From positions 7,942 through 71,941 of the forward strand of contig CALXTS010000004.1 in assembly GCA_944391465.1 (NCBI GenBank): 64,000 bases of DNA, written 5' to 3'. The DNA is from an uncultured Alphaproteobacteria bacterium (GTDB lineage Bacteria; Pseudomonadota; Alphaproteobacteria; RF32; CAG-239). The notes below the pieces were generated by a model. That model saw only the letters and a list, made by a program, of their open reading frames with translations, was not told the origin of the DNA and made no database searches. Positions 16,453-19,794 of this stretch are shown one piece after another. Position 1 is the first letter of the stretch. Every line of letters starts with the position of its first letter. The translations under genes and the position numbers were made by a program.

Positions 16453-19400
16453 CTAGTTCCTCCGATTTTTGGCGACTTCCTGCAAAACATAGCCGGAGAC
16501 TTTCTTATCTAAGTCAATAAATGAACCGTTATTTTTTATGTGCCCTATGTTAACACCTTGTCTATCAATAACGTTTCCTTCGGCGTTTAATCTCCCTCTA
16601 TATTCACCATCATTTCCCAAAATAGTCGTTCCGATTTTAAATATTTTTCCTATGATATTGTCATTTTGATCAATTGCCAAGCCACTCGATAAAGTTCTAC
16701 CCAGAATAGTACCGTCTTTACCTGAAATTGTACCATCACGATTTACATAACCGACAACTTTATCCATATTATCTATCACAATATCACCAAACAAAACTTC
16801 TCCAATAAGTTTTCCGGCAACATTAATAACATTTCCGTCTGATAGAACTCTCCCAATAACAACATTGCTTTTACTGATAACACTTCCGTCCGGACGAACG
16901 GTCCCTATATTATTTCCGCCAAAATCTATGACAGACCCATGATGTAAAAGGCTTAAATTAATATCTGTCGAACCTCCGGGAAGGACAGCTGTTATGATAT
17001 CCCCTTTCATATCCATTACATCTCCCAGGGCGTTTAGCAATCCCTTATAATTTCCCCAAATATCAACCATTATATTTTCAGAAATAACTTCTCCGATAAC
17101 TTCAGATTTTGTATCAACCACTTTGCCATCATGTGTTGCAAAACCTACAACAGAACCTTTGGTGTCAATGATGCGTCCGTCTATTGATGCATATCCTATA
17201 TATGAACCATCATAGCCAATGGCGGCTCCTGTTTTAGCTACGCCCCCCTGATATTCTCCTTTGCTGTCTATAAACTGCCCTTTGGGGTTTATTTTACCGA
17301 GTTTATCCCCATAAATACTCAGTAGGGTTCCGTCATACTCACTATTTCCGACATAGCTTCCTTTTAGGTTCAATATTTTTCCATGAATTGCGGGCATTCC
17401 CAAACGGCCATTATAATATCCGTTTCCATCGCCTTTTATTTTTCCTTGCGATATACCTTTGGTATCGTAGATATTTCCGTCAGGGAACAAGGTTCCGATG
17501 AGATTACCATATGCATCGACAATCGCCGTTTTCGAATCCAGTGCCGTTCCTAAAATCTCATTATTTTTCCCGACGACTAAATTATTTGCCGTTAAGCGCG
17601 CAGACGGCTTTCCATAGATTTTAACTTCACCTCGATTATCAACTTTATTTAGATAGTTTCCATCTAAATCAAATGCATATTTTTCACCTACATATTTACC
17701 GATATAGGCTCCTTGATTATTAAATACCTCTCCGTAAATACCGACACAACCGACTGCTGTCCCTGCATCATTTATCACTAGGTTATTATCATCTATTTTT
17801 CCGAGGAAATAGCCGTCAAAATCAACAGCGGCTCCGCTCTTCATTATTGCACCGACAATATTTCCTTTTTCATCCAAAACGGTTCCGTCAGGATTCATAC
17901 AGCCAACATATTTATTGCTGGCATCTTTAACTATACCGCTACTGTCTGCTGTTCCCAATATCTTACATTTATTATCAAATACTTTACCGATTTTTGCAAC
18001 CTCTCCGATGTATTTCCCTTCCGAATCGGTAACTATTCCCTCAGGCGTTATTTTATGCCCCGTTTCCTGATTTCCTTTTTTTACTTTTCCGTCTTTATCC
18101 AGATACCCTATCTGTTTGCAGCCGTATCCGACAATGAAGCCTCCTCTGACCATTTTGGCTACAATACGAGAACCATTAGGCTCACGAACCAAACCATTGG
18201 GAAGAGTTCTGCCCACAACTTGTTTCAAATCATTCTCAACTGTTCCGTCATTTTGAACTGTTCCCAACAACATTCCCTGCGGAGTTATTGGAACTTTATT
18301 TAACGAAACAAGTTTTCCGATAATATTACCGTTTTCATCAAATTCGACTTCATCACCTACAAAGCCTATTACATTTCCGTTTAAATCGACTATTGTTCCG
18401 TCTTCTAGCATACGGCCAATAATGTTGCCATTTATATCTATCAGATTACCATTTTCATCGACATAGCCGATGATATTACCATCTTTATCATAAGCTACTC
18501 GAAGTTTCTTTCCTTTCAGCGGCGCTTTCTCTGAAATAACGTTACCGTTTTCATCAACCGTTCCGACAACATTACCATTGGCATCAACAACGCTGCCATC
18601 TGGCATGACAACGCCAATTACGTTTCCGTTTTCATCAATCGCAACACGCCCTGGTTTAGTTACATAGCCAATAACGTTTCCGTTCGCATCAACCACGGTT
18701 CCGTCCGGCAAAACCTTTCCAATAACGTTTCCATTTAAATCAACCACGGTTCCGTCCGGCAAAACCCTACCGATGATATTTCCGTCCTTATCATAAACAT
18801 ATCCGGTTTCAACCGCTTTTCCTATAACTTTACCATTTAAATCAACCACCGTTCCGTCCGGTAAAACTCTACCGATAATGTTACCGTCTTTATCAACAAC
18901 CGTTCCGTCCGGATTTACATAGCCGATTAAATTACCAAATTCATCATAGACAGCACGCCGATTTTCTCCAACACCTATGACATTACCGTCTTTATCCATA
19001 ATCAAACCATTTTCGCCAACGCGGCCGATAATATTACCATTGGCATCACGAACATAGCCATCTTCATCTATATAACCAATAACTTTTCCGTCCGGACCTA
19101 TGGCTAAACGTACGGTCTTTGGTTTTTCTCCGCTTCCTTCCGCCGTCATTCCCGGAACATTTTCGCAAATTTTGCAATCTTCTTTAACAACTGCATTTCC
19201 GGTAACCGGAACTTTTGTTGTTTTTGCATTTGAACTGCTTAAGCTAAGCTCATGCCAGGTAACCAAAAAATTGTTTTGCACATTGCCGGCAATAACCGGA
19301 AGCCACGTCATGCTGATATTGCAAGTTTCTTTTCCGGATAAACTTTTTCCACTACATTCATCCTTAAAAGTAAAACCATCCGCAGGAGGATCTGCCAACT

Positions 19401-19794
19401 CTACTGTTAATATTTTTATTGCTACTTTACCATTTGTCCCGACGGTCAAGACATTTTTTGCATCCGTTCCCAATACAACCTCTCCCATTGGTATTGGATC
19501 CGGTGTAACCGTTATCGGAACTTCTCCTTCTACCGTACTGAATTCAATATTTTGAACTAAAGGATTGGTATTATCTTGTGCTAAAACATCTGCATTATCA
19601 TTAAAAACGGGTTCTTCATATTCGTAATTATCTTCTCCACTTTTAAGCAGCAGGATAAGTCCGAAAATAAATATGACTAATGATGTAATACCAATAGCTA
19701 AAATTATTCTATTAGTCTTTTTTATATATTTTTCGGAATGTGTTAAATTATCCTTACTCATCGAAGATTTTACTGCGTCCTTACTACGCTGCAA
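16453..19794 (-). CDS. Membrane-anchored 1113-aa repeat protein sharing the VirB10 repeat type (novel T4SS component candidate)
   Basis: The TTG start at 19794 overlaps the virB9 end by 25 nt; ATG 19761 is an alternative start. N-terminal TM RIILAIGITSLVIFIFGLILLL. An Ig-like beta-sandwich-looking segment follows (PITVTPDPIPMGEVVLGTDAKNVLTV...FKDECSGKSLSGKETCNISMTWLPVIAGNV). About 870 aa of LPDGTVVDxNGNVIGxV repeats make up the rest. The stop lies 3 nt before the virB10 start. Confidence 0.8.
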   Translation of the reverse strand: MQRSKDAVKSSMSKDNLTHSEKYIKKTNRIILAIGITSLVIFIFGLILLLKSGEDNYEYEEPVFNDNADVLAQDNTNPLVQNIEFSTVEGEVPITVTPDPIPMGEVVLGTDAKNVLTVGTNGKVAIKILTVELADPPADGFTFKDECSGKSLSGKETCNISMTWLPVIAGNVQNNFLVTWHELSLSSSNAKTTKVPVTGNAVVKEDCKICENVPGMTAEGSGEKPKTVRLAIGPDGKVIGYIDEDGYVRDANGNIIGRVGENGLIMDKDGNVIGVGENRRAVYDEFGNLIGYVNPDGTVVDKDGNIIGRVLPDGTVVDLNGKVIGKAVETGYVYDKDGNIIGRVLPDGTVVDLNGNVIGKVLPDGTVVDANGNVIGYVTKPGRVAIDENGNVIGVVMPDGSVVDANGNVVGTVDENGNVISEKAPLKGKKLRVAYDKDGNIIGYVDENGNLIDINGNIIGRMLEDGTIVDLNGNVIGFVGDEVEFDENGNIIGKLVSLNKVPITPQGMLLGTVQNDGTVENDLKQVVGRTLPNGLVREPNGSRIVAKMVRGGFIVGYGCKQIGYLDKDGKVKKGNQETGHKITPEGIVTDSEGKYIGEVAKIGKVFDNKCKILGTADSSGIVKDASNKYVGCMNPDGTVLDEKGNIVGAIMKSGAAVDFDGYFLGKIDDNNLVINDAGTAVGCVGIYGEVFNNQGAYIGKYVGEKYAFDLDGNYLNKVDNRGEVKIYGKPSARLTANNLVVGKNNEILGTALDSKTAIVDAYGNLIGTLFPDGNIYDTKGISQGKIKGDGNGYYNGRLGMPAIHGKILNLKGSYVGNSEYDGTLLSIYGDKLGKINPKGQFIDSKGEYQGGVAKTGAAIGYDGSYIGYASIDGRIIDTKGSVVGFATHDGKVVDTKSEVIGEVISENIMVDIWGNYKGLLNALGDVMDMKGDIITAVLPGGSTDINLSLLHHGSVIDFGGNNIGTVRPDGSVISKSNVVIGRVLSDGNVINVAGKLIGEVLFGDIVIDNMDKVVGYVNRDGTISGKDGTILGRTLSSGLAIDQNDNIIGKIFKIGTTILGNDGEYRGRLNAEGNVIDRQGVNIGHIKNNGSFIDLDKKVSGYVLQEVAKNRRN
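16490..19120 (-). repeat. Coding tandem repeats, 17-18 aa (51-54 bp) period, same family as in virB10
   Basis: VLPDGTVVDLNGNVIGK / VLPDGTVVDANGNVIGY / VMPDGSVVDANGNVVGT. DNA strings such as ATCAACCACGGTTCCGTCCGGCAAAACC recur in register at 18688, 18739 and 18841. Boundaries are approximate. Confidence 0.8.

Follow-up and report, generated by a model that had tools for sequence, protein, structure and literature searches.

A proposed function of VirB10 in type IV secretion systems (T4SS) is to relay ATP-dependent signals to the outer-membrane channel from the ATPases at the inner membrane. The protein bridges both membranes at the centre of the core complex, and CagY and DotG are enlarged, repeat-bearing homologues (PMC9371333, PMC6761968). 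We studied the VirB10 locus in a 64,000-nucleotide (nt) stretch of DNA from an uncultured alphaproteobacterium (contig CALXTS010000004.1, positions 7,942 to 71,941; hereafter the window), in which an additional gene, here called X, lies between virB9 and virB10. The preliminary description of this DNA had placed X between these two genes, and the placement is real: a CagX/VirB9 family gene precedes it, and a VirB10 with β-flower repeats and a TrbI domain follows it. The comparisons presented here make it very probable that X corresponds to the N-terminal half of a once single, giant β-flower VirB10, the gene of which underwent fission in the ancestor of a large clade of uncultured Alphaproteobacteria from the gut. 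More tentatively, we propose that this order-level clade of gut commensals might run a T4SS with a naturally split VirB10, the halves of which are joined solely by the non-covalent packing of β-flower arrays of ~50–60 hairpins each.

Together, X and VirB10 repeat the order of the canonical VirB10/TraF/TrwE proteins (PF03743, type IVA), i.e., cytoplasmic tail, transmembrane (TM) helix, periplasmic spacer, and TrbI domain, and they occupy the same position between virB9 and virB11. They differ from them in two respects. The canonical protein is one polypeptide, whereas two open reading frames (ORFs) are present here in 66+ genomes, with a signal peptide instead of a TM helix on the barrel half. 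The canonical spacer is a Pro-rich segment of ~100 residues, whereas here it consists of an ASH domain and ~1,900 amino acids (aa) of β-flower hairpins. The CagY protein of Helicobacter pylori is likewise a giant VirB10 homologue, which owes its size to a large repeat region ahead of the conserved C-terminal domain, but it is a single polypeptide for which no fission has been described, and its repeats are of a different kind, unrelated to the β-flower. Their number differs between strains and species (PMC9371333, PMC6761968). The DotG (IcmE) proteins of Legionella and Coxiella have a TM anchor, variable central repeats, and a TrbI domain, and vary in length between 1,000 and over 1,500 aa (PMC6761968). 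Unlike the pair studied here, Legionella DotG has pentapeptide repeats, is one polypeptide, and belongs to type IVB. We also observed an 850-aa DotG/IcmE-like protein (P0052; L010 10001–12553), adjoining DotH/IcmK, that has an N-terminal TM helix, regular β-flower repeats, and a TrbI domain. Hence, β-flower spacers also occur in type IVB homologues of VirB10.

Two further comparisons concern the operon and the fold. The rvh T4SS of Rickettsiales is chromosomal, with virB8 duplicated around a VirB7-like lipoprotein gene and followed by virB9-virB10-virB11 (PMC2653234), and the gene order of the window is alike. The other rvh hallmarks, virB4 and virB9 in duplicate and virB6 expanded five-fold, were not recognised in the 64-kb window, where we found one VirB4, one VirB9, and large upstream ORFs without Pfam families. 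Furthermore, RvhB10 differs from X and VirB10 in being one protein of ordinary size. In the β-flower fold (PF21784, PF21785, and PF21786, clan CL0395; Durairaj et al. 2023, PMC10584680), 8, 10, or 12 strands close into a shallow barrel with 4-, 5-, or 6-fold symmetry. Known β-flowers are small, consisting of one domain of 8–12 strands, and some are lipoproteins, whereas X and VirB10 have arrays of ~50–60 hairpins, which may be discrete flowers or one continuous array, within a core protein of a secretion system. We found no publication linking VirB10 with DUF3659 or the β-flower, describing a T4SS in this clade, or reporting a split VirB10.

Evidence for the origin of X comes from relatives in which both halves are still one chain. 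An exhaustive profile search with residues 1–216 of X against 1.84 billion representative proteins returned two classes of hits: many giant proteins in which an ASH-like domain is the repeated unit, and seven proteins of 1,498–2,363 aa that align with the entire profile over their first ~210 residues (E 1e-21 to 1e-27). The latter were found by the profile search; a word-indexed search with the X N-terminus gave only close fragments and no fused forms. All seven combine the N-terminal module of X, β-flower repeats, and a C-terminal TrbI domain, in the order cytoplasmic tail, TM helix, ASH domain, ~1,000–1,700 aa of 17-residue β-hairpins, Gly-rich linker, and TrbI. Their tail bears the motif SS(D/E)xY(I/V/L)KK(S/T)NR, which it has in common with X. 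Each has one N-terminal TM helix and no internal segment of TM strength, except for a marginal stretch in P0248 (Kyte–Doolittle value 1.96, aa 1308–1326). The DNA context is readable for one of the seven, P0260 (2,350 aa), which lies on two independent contigs (L092 and L093) in the order virB8, a 58-aa ORF, virB8, virB9, P0260, virB11. There is thus one gene where the window has two. A second gene that looked fused, in L009, contains a scaffold gap of ten Ns; the gap-free version of it, P0215 (an ORF of 2,201 aa), settled that it is a single chain. These relatives show that single-chain X-VirB10 proteins exist in sister lineages. Positions ~40–640 of the profile hidden Markov model (HMM) of the split VirB10 are collinear with residues ~800–1400 of the fused proteins, which would map the break near fused residue 800–850, a placement that is approximate since the repeats allow many registers.

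We inferred the direction of the change from two independent marker sets. In a neighbour-joining tree built from 265 columns of the TrbI region with 200 bootstraps, and rooted on a canonical 548-aa plasmid VirB10 of Sphingosinicella that has the usual N-terminal TM helix, the split VirB10s are monophyletic (86%) within a grade of fused proteins, of which P0258 is basal to all the remainder (100%). The tree of VirB11 and VirB9 (593 columns), likewise rooted on the canonical plasmid system, has the topology (L092-fused,(L009-fused,(split clade 98%))100%). Fused lineages are therefore successive outgroups of a monophyletic split clade, which implies one fission in the ancestor of that clade. The opposite scenario is that X is an independent accessory protein, either a paralogue born by partial duplication or a recruited TM-ASH-repeat protein, and that the single chains are later fusions. 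It would require 2–3 independent fusions instead of one fission, and it leaves unexplained why the order of the fused proteins, with an N-terminal tail and TM helix and a C-terminal TrbI domain, is the canonical topology, which the plasmid VirB10 used as the outgroup shares. Nor do the fused proteins contain the remnant of an internal signal peptide, or the split VirB10 a TM helix of its own. This scenario can draw on the fact that giant surface proteins commonly contain ASH-like domains, which are mobile, and on the similarity of the X C-terminus (aa 943–1079) to the N-terminus of mature VirB10 (aa 38–173), the segment of VirB10 that it resembles most (37% identity), which hints at duplicated junction sequence. 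The same similarity may, weakly, indicate that the break itself involved a local duplication near the junction. Taken together, we regard an accessory origin of X as quite improbable. The preliminary description had left the choice between the split of an ancestral, repeat-expanded VirB10 and a paralogous repeat protein; the seven fused relatives, the operon of P0260, and the rooted trees favour the former.

Several points weigh against the fission, or against the joint action of its products that we propose. Two of them also speak for an accessory origin: X and VirB10 add up to ~2,580 aa, 10–30% more than the fused proteins, and the nodes among the fused lineages are weak (30–52%). Each tree was made by neighbour-joining from no more than two markers and includes few fused lineages and a single outgroup. 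Because of the many repeat registers, the exact breakpoint is uncertain with both pairwise BLAST and full-length HMMs. The cleavage of the VirB10 signal peptide was predicted by rule only, and the re-association of X and VirB10 in the periplasm is itself inferred. The conservation of the last codons of X may partly reflect the Shine–Dalgarno sequence embedded in them rather than a protein interface. Finally, all sequences come from metagenome assemblies and none from an isolate.

The split form is widespread. Scanning one genome per GTDB species with the N-terminal module of X, we found relatives in 193 species, all of them uncultured gut Alphaproteobacteria, with labels such as 'Azospirillum sp. 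51_20', 'CAG:495', and Ca. Scatocola (the latter placed by NCBI in the Rhodospirillales); we take the clade to be the order that GTDB labels RF32. We fetched 80 loci and could parse 66. In every judgeable locus among the 80, X (1,039–1,380 aa) and VirB10 (1,407–1,813 aa) are separate ORFs, X is always between virB9 and virB10, and the genes of the two halves are never separated. The adjacent pair first seen in the window, and the order virB9-X-virB10-virB11, thus recur in 66+ species-level genomes. Orthologues of X at 61–67% and ~40% identity (1,102–1,581 aa), none with a TrbI domain, occupy the same gene position in metagenome-assembled genomes from the human gut, ruminants, and the chicken gut. 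NCBI names the orthologues only 'DUF3659 domain-containing protein'. An identical copy of the 1,102-aa protein of the window is present on 6 public contigs; the window itself belongs to a metagenome scaffold of gut type in ENA.

The junctions of X with its neighbours required one correction. The preliminary description had given X 1,113 aa and a start that overlaps the virB9 stop. Rather than the TTG of that ORF, the start is most likely the ATG at 19761, which gives 1,102 aa; it is used by the gene callers and by all of the 32 aligned orthologues (M1 is invariant, followed by S/A-K-E). An exact-sequence look-up returned no record of the 1,113-aa form, whereas the 1,102-aa form is recorded. 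As this ATG lies 8 nt beyond the virB9 stop (TAA, 19772–19770), the two genes do not overlap. The downstream junction reads as had been claimed: the X stop (TAG, 16455–16453) is separated by a single AGC from the virB10 TTG (16449–16447), i.e., by 3 nt, and the Shine–Dalgarno sequence of virB10, GGAGG (16463–16459), lies within the final codons of X (AAT CGG AGG AAC, encoding NRRN). Across the 66 parsed loci, the offset between the X stop and the virB10 start ranges from -1 to +4 nt (mode +2). The offsets -1, 0, +1, +2, +3, and +4 all occur, so that the relative frame differs among loci, and TAA, TAG, and TGA are all used as the X stop. The tail of X is KNRRN in 55 of these loci, and the codons containing the Shine–Dalgarno sequence, CGGAGGAA, are conserved. 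The short gap and the Shine–Dalgarno sequence in the last codons of X imply tight translational coupling between the two genes. The virB10 half, coupled to X in this way, has also gained a predicted signal peptide of the Sec type.

This variability decides between the split and two other explanations. The first is an artefact of assembly or sequencing, in which X and virB10 would be one ORF broken by a frameshift or nonsense error. The TAG, AGC, and TTG of the window share one frame, such that readthrough would join both proteins, and the region is repetitive, of the kind in which short-read assemblies break, as the N gap of L009 illustrates. However, the two-gene layout is shared by 66+ independent assemblies at the species level, with identity in X as low as 41%, different offsets, and all three stop codons; the signal peptide, the start codon, and the Shine–Dalgarno sequence are conserved at the junction; and in the window the repeats near the junction have diverged at the DNA level, while the identical protein is found on 6 contigs. 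The chance of an artefact is therefore negligible, and a frameshift fusing the two ORFs, against which the preliminary description had cautioned, can be set aside. The second explanation is programmed recoding, by readthrough or frameshifting, that would yield a full-length fused VirB10 besides or instead of the two products. The tiny gap and the in-frame TAG AGC TTG of the window would suit it. Yet a conserved recoding signal cannot exist when frame and stop codon vary among loci, and the readthrough product would hold the signal peptide as an internal segment, all of which makes recoding very improbable.

The two halves have complementary ends. X begins with a basic, conserved tail of 17 residues (LTHSxxYxKKTNR), the motif of which is kept in split and fused relatives, and continues into a single TM helix, with a Kyte–Doolittle maximum of 2.95 (19-residue window) over aa ~15–43 and a helix at residues 9–40 in the AlphaFold2 (AF2) model. 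The short cytoplasmic N-terminus and TM anchor noted in the preliminary description are thereby borne out. VirB10 had been described as devoid of such an anchor, and this can now be sharpened: its N-terminus reaches a Kyte–Doolittle maximum of just 1.37, under the TM level, and a cleavable-type signal peptide stands in the place of the anchor. In all 66 parsed loci, this peptide has 26–36 aa, ends in AxA before a Q, and is followed by a conserved EITAIDFNG. At the other end of VirB10, a Gly-rich linker joins the hairpins to the TrbI domain, which is the part belonging to the outer-membrane core complex, and beyond it extends a Pro/Ser-rich tail ending in PALF. The end of this tail (11902–12000, minus strand) carries a conserved aromatic residue in split and fused forms (PALF, PQLF, PELF, GGLF, or GY; also in P0043, P0044, P0046, P0215, and P0260) that recalls the C-terminal Phe of outer-membrane proteins. 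The Pfam scan found no TrbI domain in X, the domain being located in the downstream gene. By that criterion, X alone is not a member of PF03743. NCBIfam models of the VirB10/ComB10 domain match the downstream VirB10.

Past the TM helix, X has an acidic, disordered linker up to aa ~80, followed at aa ~81–192 by a β-sandwich of seven to eight strands (AF2; predicted local distance difference test [pLDDT] ~80–90 in the domain). Foldseek matches the model of this domain with probability 1.0 to the solved ASH domains of HYDIN (2e6j; template modelling score on the target [TMt] 0.61–0.69), CEP192 (6fvi), and OCRL (3qbt), and also to MSP/VAP domains. The 'Ig-like module' of the preliminary description is hence an ASH/PapD-like β-sandwich. 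Sequence models fall short of their cut-offs on X, both ASH (PF15780, 17.7 bits; gathering cut-off 27) and the NCBIfam choice-of-anchor D model (20.3; cut-off 45). Four Cys of X are invariant (C136, C147, C196, and C199, the last two just beyond the β-sandwich), which fits a periplasmic location. The ASH-like domain (profile positions ~70–170) is present in up to 36 copies in giant proteins without a known function, e.g., P0180 (4,358 aa), P0181, and P0182; it is a widespread bacterial repeat domain that is not specific to T4SS. A search of PDB sequences with X gave no matches, and Foldseek with the full model (mean pLDDT 79.9, predicted template modelling score 0.67) matched the ASH domain only, with no match in PDB for the repeat part. 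Conservation in X climbs from 0.45 to 0.67 toward the C-terminus, where the end EVAKNRRN is near-invariant.

The repeats fill the remainder of X and most of VirB10. In X, Bflower_2 (PF21785) scores 203.3 bits over 8 stretches (gathering score 38, E 7.5e-61) and Bflower (PF21784) 88.2 bits (gathering score 25, E 6.7e-25); in VirB10, Bflower_2 reaches 195.5 bits (E 2.1e-58), also above the gathering score. In the AF2 model, aa 217–1092 of X form ~103 short strands (by DSSP; pLDDT ~80–90), alternating between five and three residues with a period of 17, and the tips of the hairpins carry the [DNEQ]xxG motif of the β-flower petal, as defined in PMC10584680. The preliminary description had given X ~870 aa of one 17-residue repeat. 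The extent holds, as a β-flower array over aa 217–1092, but the regularity does not: near-perfect 17-mers are confined to aa ~217–470, beyond which the repeats are degenerate. At the DNA level, Tandem Repeats Finder detects just ~4 copies of the 51-nt unit in X, and the repeats near the junction have diverged; with so few detectable copies, collapse during assembly is not expected here. In other genomes, short-read assemblies often break or are N-scaffolded inside the near-perfect 17-mers just past the ASH domain (L009 9963–9972; fragments P0121–P0179), which is why many database orthologues of X are fragments of 200–370 aa. An HMM of the 17-residue unit finds 38 units in X (aa 220–1073) and 34 in VirB10 (aa 38–1086), with a modal spacing of 17 and nearly identical consensus sequences (GyVlPDGtVVDkNGNVI in X, GrLvEnG.VvD.NGNiI in VirB10). 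Units of the two proteins are identical at 6.5 of 17 positions on average, against 7.2 and 5.7 within each protein, and the nearest neighbour of most VirB10 units is a unit of X. With BLASTP, X and VirB10 align over 933 residues in many registers (E 3e-80). The repeats of the two proteins are thus homologous and intermixed, two points that the preliminary description had proposed to check. We also considered whether X is an RHS/YD-repeat protein. The models PF05593 and TIGR01643 reach E 5.8e-15 and 9.9e-17 over the whole protein, but no single stretch passes, X has no RHS core or toxin domain, and the likeness is confined to the hairpin motif.

How might a split VirB10 work? In the mechanism that we propose, X would be anchored to the inner membrane, its 17-residue tail facing the cytoplasm, and would take over the role of the canonical VirB10 N-terminus in contacting the inner-membrane complex and the ATPases. 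VirB10 would be exported by Sec, lose its signal peptide, and join VirB9 and the VirB7-like lipoprotein in building the outer-membrane core. In the periplasm, the hairpin arrays of X and VirB10 would associate non-covalently, rebuilding an envelope-spanning VirB10 within a very large periplasmic β-structure. The likely contact would be between the conserved C-terminus of X and the highly conserved N-terminus of mature VirB10 (QEITAIDFNGDLIGKVIPDG...). An interface at the break is suggested by the conservation of VirB10 aa 35–74 (0.88, the highest of the protein and equal to that of the TrbI core, before it falls to 0.32), by the rise of conservation at the X C-terminus, and by the fact that the genes are never separated.

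It is also conceivable, but unlikely, that X is a fission product that no longer cooperates with VirB10, having become a scaffold of peptidoglycan or periplasm or an adhesin-like protein, and that VirB10 works untethered. Against this stand the strict adjacency, translational coupling, and co-retention of the two genes in every genome examined, the cytoplasmic tail motif common to X and the fused VirB10s, and the conservation peaks at both ends of the junction. If instead the halves do re-associate, and in the canonical 14 copies, they would make a new kind of giant periplasmic β-structure (~14 x 110 hairpins), and channel gating or energy sensing would not depend on a VirB10 that is covalently continuous between the two membranes. 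The fission, retained in ~200 species-level lineages, can be regarded as a natural experiment on whether the VirB10 bridge must be one covalent chain, and for that reason it should interest T4SS specialists. The split halves and their fused relatives are ready constructs for co-expression, re-fusion, and cryo-electron microscopy. The analysis also places the β-flower fold, for which no function was given when it was first described in 2023, in a cellular setting, and it draws attention to a very large and highly divergent T4SS, so far unstudied, in Alphaproteobacteria that are common in the guts of humans, ruminants, and poultry.

Table 1. Features of the split VirB10 locus and neighbouring T4SS genes, in window coordinates.
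Feature	Coordinates	Strand	Details
VirB4 gene	32755-35187	-	upstream of the virB8 paralogues
Two VirB8 paralogues		-	flank the 62-aa lipoprotein gene; Pfam scan of the window
Probable VirB7-like lipoprotein gene	22199..22387	-	62 aa; lipobox LLMLSGC; between the virB8 paralogues
virB9 (CagX family)	19770..21452	-	CagX E 4e-11, SPOR E 5.9e-4; upstream neighbour of X
X, very probable N-terminal half of a split giant VirB10	16453..19761	-	1102 aa, ATG start
X, mechanical ORF	16453..19794	-	1113 aa, TTG start
X aa 1-40, 17-residue cytoplasmic tail and single TM helix (predicted)	19642..19761	-	Kyte-Doolittle, AF2
X aa 81-192, ASH/PapD-like β-sandwich (predicted)	19186..19521	-	AF2 and Foldseek; weak Pfam ASH
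X aa 217-1092, hairpin array	16486..19113	-	~51 β-hairpins, 17-residue unit; PF21785 E 7.5e-61
X C-terminal helix (...LQEVAKNRRN) and TAG	16453..16485	-	AF2 helix 1093-1101
virB10, very probable C-terminal half of the split gene	11902..16449	-	1515 aa, TTG start; Bflower_2 E 2.1e-58, TrbI E 9e-37
VirB10 aa 1-35, predicted Sec-type signal peptide	16345..16449	-	basic n-region, ~12-residue h-region, ...ALSA before QE
VirB10 aa 36-~1110, β-flower array	13120..16344	-	~63 hairpins; regular 17-mers near aa 870-1110
VirB10 aa 1215-1405, TrbI/VirB10 C-terminal domain	12235..12807	-	PF03743 E 9e-37; NF038091 aa 1214-1409
virB11 ATPase gene	10921..11889	-	PF00437; TIGR02788 E 9e-41; downstream neighbour of virB10

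In this part of the window, every T4SS gene is on the minus strand (Table 1), and the scores of the components against NCBIfam models are all far under the cut-offs. The 62-aa ORF between the virB8 paralogues probably encodes a VirB7-like lipoprotein. An ORF of 58–65 aa is kept at this position in L001, L003, L005, L007, L009, and L092, and the motif KLSPCAC of the protein in the window resembles the [KI]KSP-Cys motif of the VirB7/ComB7 of Rickettsia. In VirB9, a C-terminal SPOR-like (peptidoglycan-binding) domain is discernible at aa 480–558 (PF05036, E 5.9e-4), preceded by a long low-complexity region rich in Gly and Gln; the VirB9 orthologue of L005 has an equally faint SPOR match. Six ORFs without a Pfam match lie between the VirB4 and virB8 genes. 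Over the intervals 23259–32679 and 35651–41284 (minus strand), seven ORFs of the operon (1,323, 446, 164, 454, 223, 565, and 1,877 aa) have no significant Pfam family; these may be unrecognised analogues of VirB6, VirB5, VirB2, or VirB3, or clade-specific parts. The 1,323-aa gene is kept in position in L003, L005, and L007, with products of 1,324, 1,415, and 1,417 aa. On the plus strand (44737–48381), the T4SS region is adjoined by TcpQ-like, secretin, and PilO-like genes, which point to a type IVb (Tcp/Bfp-like) pilus locus.

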